Below, piece after piece: positions 23,889 through 39,897 of a stretch of DNA of 43,623 nucleotides. Within the stretch, counting starts at the first letter, position 1. Each line of letters opens with the position of its first letter. Both the position numbers and the translations under genes were made by a program. The notes under the pieces are model-generated. The model ran no database searches. It had not been told where the DNA came from and saw only the letters and a program-made list of their open reading frames with translations. The stretch comes from Terriglobales bacterium (GTDB taxonomy: Bacteria; Acidobacteriota; Terriglobia; Terriglobales; Acidobacteriaceae): the NCBI GenBank assembly GCA_035624475.1, contig DASPRL010000121.1:1-43623 (forward strand), written 5' to 3'.

Positions 23889-24914
23889 CTAAGAAGGGCT
23901 GCCCACTCCTTTGGCGCGCGCCTTGCGCTCCTCCACCGCGGCCACCACTTGGCGGTAGTCCTTCACCCAGAGCTTTTGCAGGTCGGCGCCGTAGCCGGCG
24001 ATGGCCCAGGGCGCCCGCCGTACCAGCTCCTGCAGCAGGGCGTCGCCGGCGGTCTGGTTGCGCCCCATCTCGATCAGGAAGGTGGTCTTGCTTCGGTCCC
24101 AGAGTACGACCGAGTAGGTCTTGCCGGTGGGCACGAAGTTCACCCGGTGCTGCGTGACCTTCTTGTAGAACCAGACCAGGTCCTGCAGGCGCAGCAGCTT
24201 CAGCGAGAAGGTGCCGGGACCCAGCAGCCAGGAGGGCGTGAGGACGGCCGACGACCCGAACTTCAGCGCTTGTCCCGAGTTCATCTCCTGGTCGATGTTG
24301 GCGGCCAGGTCCATTCCGGGGCCCAGCGTCTGCAGGCGAAGGGCTATGGGGTGGCGGGCGGGGTCCGAGGAATAGCCGGTGCGCAGGATCATGGCCGCGA
24401 TCACGGCCAACAGCAGGCCGAAGCCAAGGCCCACAAAGCCGGCGGTGCGGAAGCTGTCGCTGGCATCGAGCATGACCGGCAGGAACGATCCTTGCAGGCC
24501 CTCCTGGCTGGCCTCGCTGGGCGCCACGATCTTGCTGCGCACCTCCTCCGGGATGGTGGTCAGTTCGCCGGTGAACTTCTTCTGTTCGTTGAGCGGCGCC
24601 TTCACCAGCAGGAAGCGATGCCCAACCACCACCGCCACAAACCGGGCTTTCGTCTGCCCGTCCTCCTCTTCGGAGCCGCCGGTGTTGATGGGCTCGCCGG
24701 CCGGGATGGTCACGAAGTACTGCCTCAGGGTGCCGGGATCGTTCACCGTGAGCAACTGGAAAGGATCGGTGGGGAACGGCCCGCGGAAGAAGTTGTAGAG
24801 ATAGCGCCAGCTCGCGGCGGTCGCCAGCAACAGGACCGCCATGGTGACCGCGAAGAACGCCAGGGAGTTGCGGTTGCAGCGCCGGATCTGCTGTGCGATG
24901 TAGCCGTCTTCCAT
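23889..24914 (-). CDS. Hypothetical 2-TM membrane protein (341 aa)
   Basis: TM helices lie at LAFFAVTMAVLLLATAASW and FVGLGFGLLLAVIAAMIL, with a ~130-aa loop between them and a ~150-aa C-terminal soluble domain. GAGGTG lies upstream of the ATG. It is the last gene of the minus-strand RtcB cluster. Confidence 0.6.
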   Translation of the reverse strand: MEDGYIAQQIRRCNRNSLAFFAVTMAVLLLATAASWRYLYNFFRGPFPTDPFQLLTVNDPGTLRQYFVTIPAGEPINTGGSEEEDGQTKARFVAVVVGHRFLLVKAPLNEQKKFTGELTTIPEEVRSKIVAPSEASQEGLQGSFLPVMLDASDSFRTAGFVGLGFGLLLAVIAAMILRTGYSSDPARHPIALRLQTLGPGMDLAANIDQEMNSGQALKFGSSAVLTPSWLLGPGTFSLKLLRLQDLVWFYKKVTQHRVNFVPTGKTYSVVLWDRSKTTFLIEMGRNQTAGDALLQELVRRAPWAIAGYGADLQKLWVKDYRQVVAAVEERKARAKGVGSPS

Positions 24915-24971
24915 CAGGCACCTCGGGCGGGGCAGGGAGAACGTTACCGCAGGAGGGAGGAGGGCGGAATC

Positions 24972-25571
24972 CTACTTCTTAGGGAGAGCGTTGCTGAGCA
25001 GGTGCGCCTTGCCCGCCAGGTTGTAGGCGCGGAGCAGGTCGCCCTCGGCCAAGGCGGCGCGCGCCTGCGCCAGGTAGCTGCGGATCTCATCGACCGTGGC
25101 CTGCTCCTCGCGGCTGAGGGGCTGCGCCAGGTTCTGCAGGTTGGCCTCCGTGGCCGCCAGCAACTGCACCGTGCTCTGCCGGGTGCGCTCCGCCTCTTCC
25201 GGGGTGAGGCTGGGCGTGAGTTGGCTGCTGGTGGAGGGAGCGCTGCCCTCCGGCACCGTCGTCTTGGCAGGCACGTCCGCGGCCGCTGGAGGAGTTGCCG
25301 GTGCCGGGGCCGCGGGCTTTCGTGCCGGATGATGGTTCTTGGACCGCGGCGGGGTCGCCGGGGTCGGCGGTGGAGTCGCCGGCTTGATCTCCGGATGAGT
25401 GCTGTTGGTGGGGACTGCGGGCGGCGCCGGCGCCGGCTGGGCGAGGGTGGGCGCCTGCGCCTGCGGCGGCACCGCGGATGCCTTCTTCTTGTGGCATCCT
25501 GCCAGCCACAGCACTCCCACCCCTGCCAGCAGCAGGATCCCCGCTCGCGGCCTGGCTCTCAGGATGCTCAT
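24972..25571 (-). CDS. Hypothetical lipoprotein with Pro-rich linker and helical C-terminal domain
   Basis: It has a lipobox (LWLAGC), a ~90-aa Pro/Ala/Thr-rich spacer and a helical C-terminus (EEQATVDEIRSYLAQARAALAEGDLLRAYNLAGKA). Its ATG overlaps the kinase stop (ATGA at 25568-25571). Confidence 0.6.
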   Translation of the reverse strand: MSILRARPRAGILLLAGVGVLWLAGCHKKKASAVPPQAQAPTLAQPAPAPPAVPTNSTHPEIKPATPPPTPATPPRSKNHHPARKPAAPAPATPPAAADVPAKTTVPEGSAPSTSSQLTPSLTPEEAERTRQSTVQLLAATEANLQNLAQPLSREEQATVDEIRSYLAQARAALAEGDLLRAYNLAGKAHLLSNALPKK

Positions 25572-27451
25572 CCGGTGCGCGCCGCCACCTCCTGCGGCGC
25601 CCGTCCTTCCGCTTCCAGGGCAGGGAAGCGCAGGCGGAAGACCGTGCCCTGGCGGGAATAAGACTCGAACTCCACCGAGCCGTTGTGCAACTGCATCACC
25701 CGGTAGGTCATGGCCAGGCCGATGCCGCTGCCCGCCGGCTTGGTGGTGAAGTACAGGTTGAAGACCTTGTCGCGCAGGTCGGGAGGGATGCCCGGGCCCT
25801 GGTCGCAGACGTAGATCTCCAGGCCCGGCCCGACGCGGGTGGCGCCCAGGGTGAGCGCGCCGCCCTGGGGCATGGCCTGCACCCCGTTGAGCACCACGTT
25901 GAGCAGCGCCTGCTTCACCAGGTCGGCATCCACCTTGACGCGCAGGGGCTGGCGGGGCAGCTCGCGCACGATGCGCACGCCCTGGCGCTCGGCGTCGGGA
26001 GCGGCCAGCACTCCCACTTCCTCCACCAGGCGGCGCAGGTCGGTCTCGGCCAGGCGCAGCTCCACCGGGCGGGTGAAGTCCACCAGCGTTTGCACCACGC
26101 GGTCGAGGCGCTGGATCTCCTTGCCGATGACCTCCATGTGGCGGCGGGTGTCGGGGTCGGTCTGCTGCAGCTTCTGCCGCAGCACCTCCAGGTGCAGCAC
26201 GATGGCGTTGATGGGGTTCTTGACCTCGTGGGCCACCCCCGAGGTGAGGCGGCCGATGGCTGAGAGCCGCTGCGAGAGTTCGATCTCGTCCTCGATCCGC
26301 TGCACGGACTCGGCGTCATGCAGGGTGAGCAGCGTCCCGATGCGCTCCCCGCGCTCCTCGATGAAATCCAGCGAGACCTGCGGGCGCCGCCCCTCTTCCG
26401 CCTGCACCTCGTGGCGTACCAGAGGCTGGCGCAGGCTGTAGGCGTCGAGCACCAGGCTGCCCAACGGCGAGTGCTGGGCGAAGATCTCCCAGATCTCCGC
26501 CCCCAGCATCTCTGCCCGCGGCTTACCCAGGAACCGCTCCACCGAGGCGCTCACCAGCACGGCGCGCGCGTCGCGGGTGAACAGCAGGATGCCGTCCTGC
26601 AGGTTGGCCATAATCTGGTCGAGGTTCTCCTTCAAGGTGGAGAAGACCTCGCGGGCGTCGCGGATCTGCCGTCCCAGCAGGTCGATCTTGGTGGTGACCG
26701 CGCCCACTTCGTCGTCGCGCGCAGGCTCGGGCGTGCCCGCCTGCAACTGCCCGGCGCTGGCCAGATCCAGCCGCCGGCTGATGTCCTCCAGCGGCCGCAA
26801 CGCCGCGTTGGAGAGCAGCGCCGCCAGCAGCAGCGAGAGCAGCACCGCCACCCCCGAGAACAGCAGCGCGCTCTTCAGCTTGGGCTGCAGCTGGCTCCTC
26901 AGGAAGACGGTGGAGATGCCCACGCGGATGCTGCCGAAGGGCTCCCCGTTGCGCTTCACCGGCAGCCGGCGCTCGTAGACACGGGGCTTGCCGAAGACCG
27001 CCTCCAGTTGCCGTCGCAGGCTTCCCCGCTCCACCTCCGCGAAATCCTCGCGCTCCGGCAGCACCTTGCCGATCTGGTCGCGATTGGTGTGCAGCAGCAC
27101 CCGCCCGCGCGTGTCGGTGATCATGACGTCGTAGATGGTGGGCGAATAGCCGACGATGGACTGCAGCAGCGTGTTCAGCCCGGGGTCGGTCTGCAGTACT
27201 TCCTCGATGGCGGCGCGCACCTGCTGGGGATCGCGGGTGTCCACGCGGGTGCTGTCCAGATCGGCCTGCAGAGCTTCCTGGGCCGCATCCAGCACCTCGT
27301 TGGCCAGGAAGCCCGCGCCCTGGTAGGTATCGTGCACGTCGTGACGCACGATCTGCGAGACGTAGACGGAGGCCAGCCCGGCCACCAGCACCACCACCAT
27401 CCCGCTGATGGCCAGCACCAGCTTCGTCTTCAGGCGCAGTCGTGGGTGCAT
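25568..27451 (-). CDS. Membrane sensor histidine kinase (TM-periplasmic domain-TM-HAMP-PAS-HisKA-HATPase_c), NtrB/AtoS-like H-box
   Basis: ATG 27451 (MHPRLRLKTKLVLAISGMVVVLVAGLA) is followed by a ~160-aa extracytoplasmic segment, a second TM (ALLFSGVAVLLSLLLAALL) and a PAS-like region. The H-box is GVAHEVKNPINAI, with an N-box (NVVLNGVQAM) and G-boxes (DQGPGI, GSGIGL). The track ORF extending to 28882 is an off-frame run over rtcB. Confidence 0.9.
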   Translation of the reverse strand: MHPRLRLKTKLVLAISGMVVVLVAGLASVYVSQIVRHDVHDTYQGAGFLANEVLDAAQEALQADLDSTRVDTRDPQQVRAAIEEVLQTDPGLNTLLQSIVGYSPTIYDVMITDTRGRVLLHTNRDQIGKVLPEREDFAEVERGSLRRQLEAVFGKPRVYERRLPVKRNGEPFGSIRVGISTVFLRSQLQPKLKSALLFSGVAVLLSLLLAALLSNAALRPLEDISRRLDLASAGQLQAGTPEPARDDEVGAVTTKIDLLGRQIRDAREVFSTLKENLDQIMANLQDGILLFTRDARAVLVSASVERFLGKPRAEMLGAEIWEIFAQHSPLGSLVLDAYSLRQPLVRHEVQAEEGRRPQVSLDFIEERGERIGTLLTLHDAESVQRIEDEIELSQRLSAIGRLTSGVAHEVKNPINAIVLHLEVLRQKLQQTDPDTRRHMEVIGKEIQRLDRVVQTLVDFTRPVELRLAETDLRRLVEEVGVLAAPDAERQGVRIVRELPRQPLRVKVDADLVKQALLNVVLNGVQAMPQGGALTLGATRVGPGLEIYVCDQGPGIPPDLRDKVFNLYFTTKPAGSGIGLAMTYRVMQLHNGSVEFESYSRQGTVFRLRFPALEAEGRAPQEVAARTG

Positions 27452-27471
27452 GCGTGAGATCCGGACCTCTC

Positions 27472-28944
27472 CTAGCCTTTGAGGACTCCGATGGGCTCCA
27501 GGCGCGCCACCTTCTTGCCGATGCCCGCGCGGTGTACCACCTCGACCACCCGGGCCACGTCCTTGTAGGCGACGGGAGCCTCTTCCGCCAGCCCGCTCAG
27601 GGAGCCGGCCCGCACCCCGATGCCGCGCGCCTCCAGCTCCTCGCGCAGGCGCTCCCCGCGCACCTGCTTCTTGGCCCGGGCGCGGCTCATCACCCGGCCC
27701 GCCCCGTGGCAGGTGGAGCCGAAGGTTTGCTCCATCGAGCGCTCCGTCCCCAGCAGGATGTAGGAGGCCGTCCCCATCGAGCCCGGCACCAACACGGGCT
27801 GGCCCAGGTCGCGCAGGGAGTCGGGTAGCACCGGCGAGCCTGGCCCGAAGGCGCGCGTCGCTCCCTTGCGGTGCACGCACACCTTCATGCTCTGGCCGCC
27901 CACCTGGTGCTCTTCCATCTTGGCCATGTTGTGGGCGATATCGTAGACCTGGTGGAGGTCGAAGCTCTCCACCCGCCCGGCCAGCGCCTCTTCCATGGAG
28001 CGCCGGATCTGGAATGTGAGCACCTGGCGATTGGCGAAAGCGAAGTTGGCGGCGCAGGCCATGGCCGCCAGGTAGCGCTCGCCTTCCGGCGAGTCCAGGG
28101 GCGCGCACACCAGTTCGCGGTCGGGCAGCTCGATGCCGTGCTCCCGCACCGTGCCCTGCAGCCGGCTCACGTAATCCTCGCAGACCTGGTGGCCCAGCCC
28201 GCGCGAGCCGCAGTGGATCTGCACCACCACCTGCTCCGGAAACAGCCCCAGGCGCTCGGCGGCCTCGCCGTCGTAGATGGCCGCGATGCGGTCCACCTCG
28301 ATGAAATGGTTGCCCGCACCCAGGGTCCCCACTTGCGGCCGCCCCCGCTCTTTGGCGCGCGGCGAGACCTGCTCCGGGTCGGCGCCCGCCATGCACCCAC
28401 CCTCCTCGGTGCGCTCCAGGTCCTGGGGGCGTGCATAGCCCTGGCGCAGGGCCCAGCGCGCGCCCTCGCGCAAGACCTGGTCGAGATCTTCGTGGCTCAG
28501 CCGGAAGCCGCCACTCACGCCCACCCCGCTGGGACAGTTGCGGTAGAGCACGGTGAGCAGGCCGTCCAGGTGCGGCCGCACCTCTTCGACGGAGAGCGTG
28601 GAGGCCAGCACCCGCACCCCGCAGTTGATGTCGTAGCCCACGCCGCCGGGGGAGATCACGCCCTCGGGGACGCGGGTGGCCACCACCCCTCCGATGGGAA
28701 AGCCATAGCCCTGGTGGATGTCGGGCATGGCGATGGCGTACTTGACGATGCCGGGCAGGGTGGCGGTGTTGACCAGTTGCTCGATGGAGCGGTCGGCCAG
28801 CGCGTCCTCCAGCAGCGACTCGTCGGCGTAGAGGCGCGCCGGCACCCGCATGTCCTCGCGGAATTCGCGCGGCAGCTCCCACACGTTGCGGGCCACCTGC
28901 TGGAAGTCATGCTTGCTCGCGATGGTCTGGGTCTTCTGCATCAC
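27472..28944 (-). CDS. rtcB: RNA-splicing ligase RtcB (3'-phosphate/5'-hydroxyl RNA ligase)
   Basis: Conserved RtcB blocks are present: [54 protein letters not shown] and the guanylyl-histidine context CHGAGR. The start is GTG 28944 or ATG 28941, and both overlap the archease stop. Confidence 0.95.
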
Positions 28945-29342
28945 ACGTCCAGCACCAGGGTGGCCTGCCAGCCCTCCGCCGCCGGTTGCACCCGCAGGTC
29001 GTGGAAGGTGACCGCCTTGATGCGCCGGCGCACTTGCGCCTGGGTTCCGCCGCGCACGCGCGCGCTCAGGCGCGTTGCGGAGAGTTCCTCCATCTCGAAC
29101 TCACTGTACACCTCCCCATGGCGTTCTTGCAGGTAGAGAAGCTCGTTGAGCCAGTTCACCAGCAGGGTCTCGCGATCCACTCCTTCGACCTCGACCCGGC
29201 GTTCCTGCCGCGGGGGCGGCAGGCCGCCGCCCTGGAGCGTGAACATGCCGCGGGCGGCGTTGGCGAACAGTTCGGCGGGATCGCGCCCGTAGGCGCAGAA
29301 GGCCAGGTCGGCCGTGTGCTCGATCTCTTCGAAGGCCTTCAT
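28941..29342 (-). CDS. Archease (RtcB activator/chaperone family)
   Basis: The N-terminal [10 protein letters not shown] motif, the ~133-aa size and the C-terminal KAVTFHDL block fit archease. It lies immediately upstream of, and overlapping, rtcB. Confidence 0.85.
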
Positions 29343-29348
29343 GACCGG

Positions 29349-30740
29349 CTACTGAGGCGCGTCGACGGCCACCGCGCTGGCGTTGTACTCCTTCAGCTTG
29401 TTGTGCAGCGTCTTCAGGCTGATGCCCAGGATCTCGGCGGCCCGGGTCTTGTTGTTGTTGGTGAACTCCAGCGTCTTCAGGATGAGCAGCCTCTCCGCCT
29501 CGTCCACGGTGGTGCCCACGCCCAGGCGCACCGCGTTGGGCTCTTCCACCGCGGGGCGCGGCAGACCCTGCCCGAAGCCCGGCGGCAGGTGCTTGGGCTC
29601 GATCTCCGGAGACTGGCAGACGATCACCGCCCGCTCCAGGGTGTTGCGCAATTCCCGCACGTTCCCCGGCCAGGAGTAGTCCTGGAACAGCGACATCACC
29701 GCGTCGCTCACCAGGCCCACCTTGCGTCCGTGCTTGCTGTTGACCTCGGCCAGCAGGGCCGGCACCAGTTCGGCCAGGTCCTCTTTGTGCTCGCGCAGCG
29801 GCGGCATGGCGATGTGAAAGACGTTGAGCCGGTAGTAGAGGTCCTGGCGCAGCTCGCCCCGGGCCACCGCCTCTTCCGCCACCTTGTTGGTGGCGGCGAG
29901 CACGCGCACGTCCACCGGGGTCTCCAGCTTGCTGCCCAGGCGCCGCAGCTTGTGGTCCTCGAGCACGCGCAGCAGCTTGGCCTGGGTGGCCACCGGCATC
30001 TCCCCGATTTCGTCCAACAGCAGCGTCCCTTCCTCGGCCAGCTCGAAGCAGCCGGCGCGCCGCTCCAGGGCCCCCGTGAAGGCGCCCTTCTCGTGTCCGA
30101 AGATCTCGCTCTCGATCAGGGTTTCGGGAATGGCGGAGCAGTTGATGGCCACGAACGGCCGCCCCTTGCGCGGGCTCATCTCGTGGATGGTGCGCGCCAC
30201 CAGCTCCTTGCCCGTGCCGCTCTCGCCCGTGATCAGCACCGACGCCGTGGAAGGCGCCACCTGCTCCACCAGCCGGAAGGTCTCCTGCATCTTCTTGGAG
30301 GAGCCCACCAGCGAGCCCAGCACGCCGGTGTCGCGCAGCTTGCGCCGCGTGACTTCCAGCTCCCGCTCCGTGCCGCGCTGGCGCGCCGCATTGTTCAAGA
30401 TGGTGCGCAGCCGGGTCGGGTCGATGGGCTTCTGGATGAAGTCATAGGCGCCGCTCTTCATGGCCTCCACGGCCACGTCGATGGTGCCTTGCGCGGTGAG
30501 CAGGATCACCGCCACGGCCTGCGGCTGGGCGGAGATGCGTTCCAGCAGCTCCAGCCCGTCCATGCGCGGCATCTTCAGATCGGTGATCACGATGCCCGGC
30601 GACCAGCCCGCCACCTTCTCCAGGCCTTCGACGCCGTCCTTCGCGGTTTCGGCGCGATAGCCCCACGCCGACACCAGCTCGGCCAGCCCGCTGCGCTCGT
30701 TCTCCTCGTCCTCCACGATCAGTACTCTTTCCGGTGTCAT
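29349..30740 (-). CDS. Sigma54-dependent response regulator (REC + AAA+ EBP + Fis-type HTH; NtrC family)
   Basis: ATG 30740 follows GAGGGAG. It has a receiver domain (VLIVEDEE..., IVITDLKMPRMDG, LTAQG, KP), Walker A (GESGTGKE), the sigma54-contact GAFTGA loop (EKGAFTGA), Walker B (LLLDEIGE) and a C-terminal HTH (KTRAAEILGISLKTLHNKLKEY). The track start at 30845 is rejected. Confidence 0.9.
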   Translation of the reverse strand: MTPERVLIVEDEENERSGLAELVSAWGYRAETAKDGVEGLEKVAGWSPGIVITDLKMPRMDGLELLERISAQPQAVAVILLTAQGTIDVAVEAMKSGAYDFIQKPIDPTRLRTILNNAARQRGTERELEVTRRKLRDTGVLGSLVGSSKKMQETFRLVEQVAPSTASVLITGESGTGKELVARTIHEMSPRKGRPFVAINCSAIPETLIESEIFGHEKGAFTGALERRAGCFELAEEGTLLLDEIGEMPVATQAKLLRVLEDHKLRRLGSKLETPVDVRVLAATNKVAEEAVARGELRQDLYYRLNVFHIAMPPLREHKEDLAELVPALLAEVNSKHGRKVGLVSDAVMSLFQDYSWPGNVRELRNTLERAVIVCQSPEIEPKHLPPGFGQGLPRPAVEEPNAVRLGVGTTVDEAERLLILKTLEFTNNNKTRAAEILGISLKTLHNKLKEYNASAVAVDAPQ

Positions 30741-30911
30741 GACTCCCTCGCTGCCGCTGCCCCGGGAGGAAACCTCCCAGGTACCTGTGCAATTCTTACA
30801 TGCTTGGCATGCGCCCGTCTCCTCAAAATCAGGACCTACGCTCAAACGGAAATGGTCGTAAGACTTTAGTAATCAACCGCTTCCAGGCGAGCTAGGTGCT
30901 GCCGCAAGCCC

Positions 30912-30928
30912 CTGGGTGCAGCCTTGCA
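30912..30928 (+). promoter_or_regulatory. Candidate sigma54 (-24/-12) promoter, divergent from the EBP operon
   Basis: CTGGGTGCAGCCTTGCA: GG at 30914-30915 and GC at 30926-30927 show the exact 12-nt register of the consensus YTGGCACG-N4-TTGCW. The -12 element TTGCAT is perfect and the -24 element retains TGG. Confidence 0.4.
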
Positions 30929-31317
30929 TCTGTCTCCCGCCAGGCGGTCATAGTGCTTTTTCACCGCCACTCTGCGACCCCGCCGCCACCACGACCATTG
31001 GTGGCGTCGCGGGCGGCGTGGGCCAGACGGTGGGCACCACCACCGGGGTGGCGGGCAATGCGGCGGGGTCCACGGTGGGCGCCACCGCGGGCGCCGCGGG
31101 TAACGTTGCCGGCAACGTCGGTCGTTCCGGCGCTATGGCGGCCACCGACGTCTCCGGGCATCTGCTGGCCTCCAGCAGCGGGGTCGTGGGGCTTCCCGGC
31201 CTGACCCTGCAATCGGCCGCCTCCAGTGCCACCCAGGGGGCGGTAGTGGCCTCGAGCGGCAAGAACGTCCACCTCGACAGTGGTACCCAGATGGTGTTGC
31301 GCGTGGTCAGCCAGTAG
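30916..31317 (+). CDS. Gly/Ala/Thr-rich small protein (glycine-zipper-like), start codon uncertain
   Basis: This is the maximal ORF. GC3 is high from about 30990 onward, but codons are poor before that, so the true start is probably internal (GTG 31018, 31030 or 31048, or ATG 31135). The repetitive G-x-x-x-G stretch (GVAGNAAGSTVGATAGAAGNVAGNVG) is followed by a non-repetitive C-terminus (GKNVHLDSGTQMVLRVVSQ). Confidence 0.4.
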   Translation: MQPCICLPPGGHSAFSPPLCDPAATTTIGGVAGGVGQTVGTTTGVAGNAAGSTVGATAGAAGNVAGNVGRSGAMAATDVSGHLLASSSGVVGLPGLTLQSAASSATQGAVVASSGKNVHLDSGTQMVLRVVSQ

Positions 31318-36980: not shown

Positions 36981-37242
36981 AGCTTCCTGCGGGTTGGCCT
37001 CCGCATTCCCGGTCCTTCCCACATTGGGAAAACCAAGGAATCTCGTCTAACGCCTTGACCGTCCAGCCCATTACGCCAGCCGCGGCTCTGGTTGCGAGCC
37101 CCGGTCGTTCCATTATGGGAACACTGGCCCAGAACTTTCCCAACCTCGTTCTGTGCAACTCCCGCTCCGGGAAGCAGTTGGAAGGATTCCCACGCGCGGA
37201 AGCCGGATTGCTCTGGAAACAGCGGAGGTTGCATCCACGGCC

Positions 37243-38439
37243 ATGCCCGCTCCCAGCCCAGCGCGCGCCGCGCCGCCCGGTGGTCCCACCCGGTCTCAAC
37301 TGGCGGACTTGGGACGCCTGGCCGGCGGCGTAGCCCACGAGTTCAACAACCTGCTGACCGCCATCCAGATCCATGCCGGGCTGCTCCTGGAGCGGCTTCC
37401 CCCCGAACATCCGGCGCGCCCCTCGGCCCAGGAGATCCGCCTGGCCGCCGAGCAGGGGGCGTTGCTGGTGGAGCAACTCTCCCGGCTCTCCCGCCGCCAG
37501 CCTGCGCAGCCGCAGGTGGTGGACCTGGACCGGATGATCGCCGGCCTGGCGGAGATGCTGCAGCACCTGATCGGGGAGCACATCCGGTTGCGTCACCAGC
37601 CCGCCTCCCGGCCCGCCCGGGTGCGCGTCGATCCCGCGCAGTTGCGCCAGGTCATCCTCAACCTGGTGCTGAACGCCCGCGACGCCATGCCCTCGGGCGG
37701 CTGCCTGACCCTGGCCACCTCGCACCACGAAATCGCCGCCGAGCAGGCCCTCCGGCATCCCGGCCTGGAGCCCGGTCCCTGCGTGCGCCTGGCGGTCGCC
37801 GACACCGGTTCGGGGGTGGACGCACTCGCCCGCCGCCACCTGTTCGAGCCTTACTTCACCACCAAGCCGCCGGGGCGGGGCAGCGGCCTGGGCCTGCCCG
37901 CCGTCTACGGCCTGGTGCAGCAGAACCGCGGTAGCGTCTGGCTGGAGAGCGAGCCCGGGCAGGGAACCACCGTCTACCTGCTGCTGCCGGTGGCCCCGGC
38001 TTCGTCCTCCGCCCGGGCGGAGCCGGAAGCGGAAGAGGCCGCGGTCGCGGGCGGCTCTGAGACCATCTTGCTGGTGGAGGATGCGGAGGTGGTGCGGCGC
38101 GCCCTGGCGGCCGGCCTGGCGGCCTACGGCTATCGCGTGCTGGAAGCCGCCGACGGCCCCCAGGCGCTGCGCCTGGCCGCGCAGCACCCCGGCGCCATCG
38201 ACCTGGTGCTCACCGACGTAGTCTTGCCCGGCCTGAACGGGCGGGAGCTGGCCTGGCGGATGGACTCCAGCCACGCCGGCACCCCCGTGCTCTACATCTC
38301 CGGCTACGGCGAGGTCGTGGCGGGGTGCCCGCTGGCGCGCCCGCTCACCTTCGCCAAGCCCTTCGACGCGGCCCGCCTGGCGCGCCAGGTGCGCCGCCTG
38401 CTCGCGGGCCGGCGCCGGCCCGGCAAGAAAAGCGCTTGA
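37243..38439 (+). CDS. Cytoplasmic hybrid histidine kinase without sensor domain (HisKA-HATPase_c-REC)
   Basis: The H-box (GGVAHEFNNLLTAI) begins ~30 aa after ATG 37243. It has an N-box (LNLVLNARDAM), G-boxes (DTGSGV, GSGLGL) and a C-terminal receiver (ILLVEDAEVV...LVLTDVVLPGLNG...YISGY). There is no TM or PAS segment. The start is uncertain; the track start is 37153. Confidence 0.8.
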   Translation: MPAPSPARAAPPGGPTRSQLADLGRLAGGVAHEFNNLLTAIQIHAGLLLERLPPEHPARPSAQEIRLAAEQGALLVEQLSRLSRRQPAQPQVVDLDRMIAGLAEMLQHLIGEHIRLRHQPASRPARVRVDPAQLRQVILNLVLNARDAMPSGGCLTLATSHHEIAAEQALRHPGLEPGPCVRLAVADTGSGVDALARRHLFEPYFTTKPPGRGSGLGLPAVYGLVQQNRGSVWLESEPGQGTTVYLLLPVAPASSSARAEPEAEEAAVAGGSETILLVEDAEVVRRALAAGLAAYGYRVLEAADGPQALRLAAQHPGAIDLVLTDVVLPGLNGRELAWRMDSSHAGTPVLYISGYGEVVAGCPLARPLTFAKPFDAARLARQVRRLLAGRRRPGKKSA

Positions 38440-38469
38440 GGGGTGGACTCCCCCGAAGGGAGGGCTACA

Positions 38470-39893
<1,424 letters not shown>

Positions 39894-39897
<4 letters not shown>

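Follow-up and report, generated by a model that had tools for sequence, protein, structure and literature searches.

The window analysed here is a 43,623-nt stretch of Terriglobales (Acidobacteriota) DNA from a metagenome contig. It contains a cluster of six tightly spaced genes on the minus strand, in which the genes of archease and of the RNA ligase RtcB lie between those of an NtrC-family response regulator (RR) and a membrane sensor histidine kinase (HK). Reading the open reading frames (ORFs) of the window confirmed all six genes at the coordinates claimed by the initial annotation, and an independent gene call on the identical public contig ENA ERZ27251308 (L081) contains the same six. 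The features of the cluster are the following.

29349..30740, minus strand: NtrC-family RR, first gene of the cluster, with a REC receiver, a sigma54 AAA+ domain carrying GAFTGA and a Fis-type helix-turn-helix (HTH).
28941..29342, minus strand: archease (PF01951), first gene of the two-gene inserted cassette.
27472..28944, minus strand: RtcB 3'-phosphate/5'-hydroxyl RNA ligase (PF01139), second gene of the inserted cassette.
25568..27451, minus strand: membrane sensor HK, with a first transmembrane (TM) segment, a periplasmic single-Cache domain, a second TM segment, a HAMP-like linker, PAS, HisKA and HATPase_c.
24972..25571, minus strand: Pro/Ala-rich lipoprotein with a signal peptide and lipobox, downstream partner of HK.
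23889..24914, minus strand: two-TM DUF6709 protein (PF20456), lineage-specific and outside the conserved unit.
29343..29348, minus strand: RR-archease spacer of 6 nt, the upstream insertion junction.
27452..27471, minus strand: rtcB-HK spacer of 20 nt, the downstream insertion junction.
30741..30930, minus strand: leader/promoter region upstream of RR, with the shared block GCGCATGCCAAGC and a 9-bp leader hairpin and without a sigma54 consensus.

The gaps and overlaps described previously all match: 6 nt after RR, a start/stop overlap between archease and rtcB, 20 nt before HK, an ATGA between HK and the lipoprotein gene (4 nt) and 57 nt between the lipoprotein and DUF6709 genes. Specifically, the archease stop and the rtcB start overlap by 4 nt if rtcB begins at GTG 28944 and by 1 nt if it begins at ATG 28941. 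The public gene call uses ATG 28941 (489 aa), one codon inside GTG 28944. The cluster has no predicted intrinsic terminator on the minus strand. Elsewhere the window has ordinary chromosomal content, with pilMNOPQ, accBC, permeases, a fabI-like gene, an MFS gene and a second two-component system. A Pfam scan of the cluster and 29 flanking ORFs found no RtcA, RtcR or mobile-element gene in the window. A tight co-directional run of genes is unremarkable in itself; the gene content is what matters.

The genomic context of HK was surveyed in 80 loci from a metagenome scan with HK and in long contigs (84 loci, L084-L167), by tblastn of the six window proteins. RR lies directly upstream of HK in 42 of these 84 loci, separated from it by a single spacer of 21-460 nt, and the RR orthologues of the 42 loci show 75-84% identity. 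No sigma54 enhancer-binding protein (EBP) is present upstream of HK in another 27 loci, all of which belong to a clade with about 60% HK identity. The remainder consists of 14 loci too short to classify and one locus with the insertion (L088, HK 98% identical). In three long contigs of metagenome-assembled genomes (MAGs) with HK orthologues of 63-66% identity, RR is followed directly by HK and then by a lipoprotein homologue, with no archease or rtcB at the locus. The flanks also recur, with divergent OmpA-like and BNR/sortilin genes upstream and convergent TPR and MFS genes downstream; the upstream genes are common to the window, L086 and L087 (two of the three long MAG contigs).

The RR-archease-rtcB-HK order was also found in L173 and L174 (HK identity about 89-90%). 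The insertion is confined to the window and L081-L083, L088, L173 and L174, which represent several independent assemblies with HK identity of 88-98%. In L175, which has the next closest HK (70%), the RR C-terminus lies 53 nt upstream of HK without an insertion, and the genes downstream match those of the window: lipoprotein, convergent TPR, an ORF of about 200 aa and MFS. On an unrooted neighbour-joining distance tree of HK, the insertion clade forms a shallow group at the tips, inside the lineages with adjacent RR and HK; its successive sisters are L175 and then L124 and L140, all without the insertion. Because this clade branches from among lineages that lack archease-rtcB, the insertion is derived, at roughly genus level. 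The RR-archease spacer is 6 nt in the window and 36-39 nt in L173 and L174, and the 20-nt rtcB-HK spacer is kept in L088, L173 and L174. Inspection of both junctions revealed no insertion scars or repeats. Taken together, the comparison of loci indicates that the archease-rtcB insertion is derived and lineage-restricted, and that the RR-HK-lipoprotein operon is the older, widely conserved unit.

The cassette itself has relatives in other genomic settings. The nearest RtcBs outside the insertion clade, in a large protein database, are 73-79% identical; where named, they are labelled Terriglobales, except for one Chlamydiota, one Chloroflexi and one Anaerolineae. Archease and rtcB form a tight pair in all five close Terriglobales RtcB loci, which represent four distinct contexts: after a resistance-nodulation-division (RND) pump gene (15-nt gap), after the gene of a cyclic nucleoside monophosphate (cNMP)-binding protein (two lineages), after a radical-SAM gene (20-nt gap) and after pilin-like genes. 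The upstream co-directional gene is often only 15-99 nt from the pair, and none of the five pairs is adjoined by an HK or EBP gene. Archease-rtcB pairing is likewise common among the 80 RtcB loci listed from GTDB representative genomes, none of which has a flanking HK/RR arrangement; one of them (L064) has a convergent HK-RR pair downstream. Thus, archease-rtcB appears to be a small unit found repeatedly on the 3' side of unrelated co-directional genes. The initial annotation had named conservation of the HK/RR-rtcB linkage in related genomes as a test of its model, and the linkage is not conserved: it is limited to the clade in which HK identity is at least 88%, and is absent from the 42 RR-HK loci, L175, the five Terriglobales RtcB loci and the 80 GTDB RtcB loci listed.

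The small cNMP-binding gene stands directly before archease-rtcB at 7017-7478 in L169/L170 and at 5083-5484 in L177, with a convergent TonB_C gene downstream. The cassette may have had an earlier location in this context, where the cNMP-binding protein is a candidate regulator.

Both proteins of the cassette are typical members of their families. Archease matches PF01951 (1.9e-34; 119.3 bits, cutoff 25) and aligns with structures 1jw3 and 4n2p; both its N-terminal EHTAD motif and its C-terminal KAVTFHD motif fall within the alignment. RtcB matches PF01139 over its full length (model positions 1-426; 1.5e-173; 578.4 bits, cutoff 27) and aligns end to end with Pyrococcus horikoshii RtcB (1uc2; 596 bits). 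The motifs GYDINC (D105, C108), GNHF (H213), IHCGSRG (H244), AHN (H338) and STCHGAGR (H413) are conserved between the two. On the basis of published RtcB structures, we take these residues to be the metal-binding residues and the guanylylated His. The archease gene immediately adjoins rtcB in the same direction, as expected of an archease-RtcB operon. Archease is an activation cofactor of RtcB and is paired with rtcB in the 'tRNA splicing operon' of bacteria and archaea (Desai et al. 2014, PMC3973293; Desai et al. 2015, PMC4604427).

The ratio of nonsynonymous to synonymous substitution rates (dN/dS), calculated for the window versus L088, L173 or L174, is 0.16-0.19 for archease and 0.14-0.20 for rtcB. 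Across RR, archease, rtcB, HK and the lipoprotein gene the ratio is 0.08-0.20, and dS is broadly comparable along the cluster. Archease and rtcB have co-diverged with the flanking genes under purifying selection. The kept motifs and the dN/dS values indicate that both genes are functional.

The regulator has the domains of a REC-type EBP, namely Response_reg (4.9e-29), Sigma54_activat (2.8e-70) and HTH_8 (3.3e-12), with a phospho-acceptor D54, a Walker A motif at 172-179 and GAFTGA at 219-224. Its best NCBIfam match is AtoC (427.6 bits, cutoff 714). The NCBIfam RtcR model aligns only to residues 80-454 (311 bits, cutoff 650), and the PADLOC RtcR models align from model position 104 or later, mainly over the AAA+/HTH part. 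The EBP is of REC type rather than CARF type, as first proposed, since its N-terminus is Response_reg and the RtcR models cover the AAA+/HTH part only. A PADLOC scan for a defence-system context yielded only these generic EBP matches to RtcR models, and the candidate was set aside.

The kinase contains sCache_3_2, PAS, HisKA (6.5e-12) and HATPase_c (3.8e-19), with TM segments at 11-29 and 195-213 and the H-box histidine H408 in GVAHEVKNP. The architecture described previously stands for the two TM segments, the periplasmic Cache domain and PAS, and falls short for HAMP, whose Pfam match is below threshold (E 0.54). HK scores 270.2 bits against NCBIfam AtoS (cutoff 646), and the ZraR (345.3 versus 760) and ZraS (190 versus 479) scores are similarly below the equivalog cutoffs. 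More than 100 full-length HK relatives have 60-71% identity, and the named ones are all labelled Terriglobales or Acidobacteriia. Adjacency of the orthologues in 42 loci and in L175 indicates that RR and HK are a cognate pair, for which phosphotransfer is predicted.

The lipoprotein has a signal peptide and an LAGC lipobox, and its start overlaps the HK stop. A long Pro/Ala-rich linker leads to a C-terminal domain of about 80 aa, which is helical and conserved; no Pfam family was matched. Most loci of the 84-locus survey have a lipoprotein homologue after HK, including the clade without an adjacent RR. By analogy with ZraP and CpxP, which prompted the idea, the lipoprotein may be a periplasmic accessory of HK. 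In the clade with about 60% HK identity (27 loci within L118-L164, e.g. L134 5995-8661), no sigma54 EBP is present within 1.8-6 kb upstream of HK, and most loci keep the lipoprotein gene downstream. Because this clade keeps the lipoprotein without RR, HK-lipoprotein is the more deeply conserved unit, from which RR has parted at least once.

The DUF6709 protein (PF20456, 1.3e-16) has two TM segments and the highest dN/dS of the cluster (0.33). Only the window/L081 and L088 carry its gene; the convergent TPR gene comes directly after the lipoprotein gene in L174 and L175, without DUF6709. Because of this distribution, DUF6709 is a second, younger addition to the cluster and not a conserved accessory. 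Of the two envelope accessory proteins proposed previously, the lipoprotein is kept after HK in most loci and DUF6709 is a late arrival limited to the window and L088.

Upstream of the cluster, we searched for the promoter of a sigma54-controlled operon. No TGGCAC-N5-TTGC-like site with up to two mismatches is present on the minus strand from 29343 to 30930, i.e. the RR upstream region and the RR gene, and the 6-nt RR-archease spacer is too short for a sigma54 promoter. With the same tolerance, the whole window has 30 matches, versus 56 expected by chance. A weighted GG-N10-GC scan upstream of RR in 30 loci, in both orientations, found nothing conserved. No sigma54 element was detected upstream of RR or archease in the window or its close relatives.

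A motif survey of the 200 nt upstream of the RR start in orthologous loci (L084-L167) identified a sigma70-like TTGC[ACG][GC]-N~18-[GA]ATAAT in 14 of 32 regions, ending 9-18 nt before the start codon. With this position, the leader would be very short. A second motif, GTTAC-N~16-GCATC, is found further upstream in 10 of the 32 regions. The insertion clade (window, L088 and L173) has neither the TTGC...ATAAT nor the GTTAC...GCATC motif and retains only the GCGCAT(G)CCAAGC block (about -72) that is common to orthologous loci. In the window, a leader hairpin with a 9-bp stem and a 3-nt loop, CCTGGGAGG-TTT-CCTCCCGGG, lies at about 30761-30781 (minus strand), some 20-40 nt upstream of the RR start; L173 has a similar hairpin sequence, AGGAGGTTTCCTCC. 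The sequence offers no positive evidence that RR drives its own operon.

On the opposite strand, a sigma54-like CTGGGTGCAGCCTTGCAT with GG-N10-GC spacing, at about 30911-30928 (plus strand), faces a divergent Gly/Ala-rich ORF at 31018-31317 (plus strand). It is common to the window and L088 only, and could be the target of a window EBP or a chance match. The window holds a second signalling pair at 37051-39897 (plus strand), a hybrid HisKA-HATPase-REC kinase (37051-38439) followed by a REC-sigma54-HTH regulator (38440-39897). In L086 and L087, the OmpA-like and BNR genes that separate the two signalling loci recur, and a partial gene of a hybrid kinase or sigma54 regulator is found at the locus edge as well.

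Because relatives carry the uninserted operon, the cassette occurs in other contexts and no sigma54 promoter was found, we consider archease-rtcB likely to be an ordinary cassette that entered the RR-HK spacer and is now a co-transcribed passenger. The locus is most likely the product of relocation, in one genus-level Terriglobales lineage of soil Acidobacteria, of a conserved cassette predicted to be catalytically intact. Specifically, the five genes, together with DUF6709 in the window's own species, would be transcribed as one unit from a promoter upstream of RR, and the archease/rtcB and HK/lipoprotein overlaps are consistent with translational coupling. From family knowledge and the conserved residues, archease-activated RtcB would seal RNA ends bearing a 2',3'-cyclic or 3'-phosphate to 5'-OH ends through a His-GMP intermediate. 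HK would sense a periplasmic ligand and phosphorylate D54 of RR, which would in turn activate sigma54 promoters elsewhere. Expression of the ligase genes would depend on the promoter of the two-component operon, which looks sigma70-type in relatives.

Several points weigh against this explanation. Co-transcription is plausible and is deduced from gene spacing alone. The arrangement has persisted under purifying selection across dS of about 0.3-0.6, as would also be the case with a useful linkage. The sigma70-like proximal motif of the relatives is missing from the insertion clade, so that the promoter there is only putative, and a divergent sigma54 promoter or RR autoregulation could escape a consensus search. 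The rtcB copies were read at locus level rather than genome-wide, and the 80 GTDB RtcB loci, those among the matches listed, are mostly Chloroflexota and not the closest relatives. Co-transcription with some regulatory coupling in this one lineage is plausible.

The initial annotation had proposed a coupling of the ligase core to the phosphorelay and thereby to an envelope signal. In such a model, phosphorylated RR would activate its own operon and archease-RtcB would be induced by a periplasmic or envelope signal, as a REC-type analogue of RtcR-rtcBA. The cassette does lie inside the operon, with spacers of 6 and 20 nt and no predicted terminator, and at least four diverged assemblies share this gene order, with each gene under purifying selection. 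Furthermore, the EBP link has a precedent in Proteobacteria, where a sigma54 EBP is reported to regulate RtcB (PMC7790460, PMC9650030). Against this, the linkage is missing from the 42 loci with adjacent RR and HK, L175, the five Terriglobales RtcB loci in their four contexts and the 80 RtcB loci listed. No GG-N10-GC element was detected upstream of RR or archease in the window and close relatives, and the motifs upstream of RR in relatives are sigma70-like. A gene that lies within a two-component operon is not thereby a target of the system. With the linkage confined to the clade in which HK identity is at least 88%, and no sigma54 promoter found, we regard this model as unlikely. A related model, that an envelope-sensing REC-type sigma54 system captured archease-RtcB in this genus and RNA end-healing rises with the system's possibly autoregulated expression, is in our estimate a little less likely again.

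Horizontal transfer of the cassette from Chloroflexota (Anaerolineae) into the operon is improbable. The best RtcB matches listed in GTDB representative genomes are indeed from Anaerolineae, at no more than 71% identity. However, the larger protein database contains closer RtcBs (73-79%) labelled Terriglobales, and for archease the identity is 58% with the Terriglobales neighbours and no higher than 50% with Chloroflexota. The GC content of the insert (about 0.69) equals that of its flanks, in a window of about 68% GC, and the Pfam scan of the flanking ORFs found no mobile-element genes nearby. Lastly, an ancestral RR-archease-rtcB-HK order, with the cassette deleted in all other Terriglobales lineages, is very improbable: it has no direct support, and although the unrooted distance tree alone gives no direction of change, the insertion clade is a shallow tip (HK at least 88%) within deep, diverse RR-HK-adjacent lineages, many independent precise deletions would be required, and the closest outgroup RtcBs are located elsewhere, the cNMP-binding/archease/rtcB/TonB_C context found in two lineages being a better candidate for the older location.

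If the cassette is a relocated passenger, the locus cleanly illustrates that recent rearrangement can give rise to a tight operon of designed appearance, and it is a caution against reading regulation from adjacency alone. The uninserted RR-HK operon in sister lineages and the cassette elsewhere are natural controls for the effect of relocation on RtcB expression. If the two-component system has instead captured the cassette, this would be the first RtcB under phosphorelay rather than CARF (RtcR) control, and a dated natural experiment with uninserted sister lineages for comparison. If phosphorylated RR does induce the ligase genes, the locus would provide a second, mechanistically different tie of RtcB to a sigma54 activator and a handle on the physiological role of RtcB in bacteria. 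We found no description of archease-RtcB inside a two-component operon in the literature, in a search that did not include the main RNA repair survey, so a prior description is possible.

Among known systems, the closest to the cassette is the archease-RtcB 'tRNA splicing operon' (PMC3973293, PMC4604427). The window shares with it an adjacent co-directional pair, a stop/start overlap, a full-length RtcB and the conserved motifs, and the same tight pair is present in most related loci examined. The pair of the window differs in not being free-standing, since it lies between two-component genes with spacers of 6 and 20 nt. By these features, the cassette is assigned to the archease-RtcB operon family.

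The likeness to the RtcR-rtcBA system of E. coli and Salmonella (PMC7790460, PMC9650030) is that an RtcB gene adjoins the gene of a sigma54 EBP. Compared with that system, the window EBP has a REC receiver in place of the CARF domain, and its gene is co-directional and upstream rather than divergent. The window has archease and, in the cluster and 29 flanking ORFs, no RtcA, whereas the E. coli system has no archease. The consensus search also found no sigma54 promoter before the ligase genes of the window. By gene content and domain composition, the window locus is not an RtcR-type Rtc system.

The best-scoring named models for the two-component proteins are those of AtoSC and ZraSR of E. coli. 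Like these systems, the window has a REC-AAA+(GAFTGA)-HTH_8 regulator and a HisKA/HATPase kinase in the membrane, whose sensor domain is periplasmic and whose PAS domain is cytoplasmic, and the cognate genes are adjacent in orthologous loci. The predicted periplasm-facing accessory lipoprotein recalls ZraP. The window system differs in scoring far below the equivalog cutoffs, as a distinct Terriglobales family, and in that the RR and HK genes are split, in the window's lineage, by 1.9 kb of RNA-ligase genes. All parts of the locus are ordinary members of well-known families; their juxtaposition is recent and lineage-specific.

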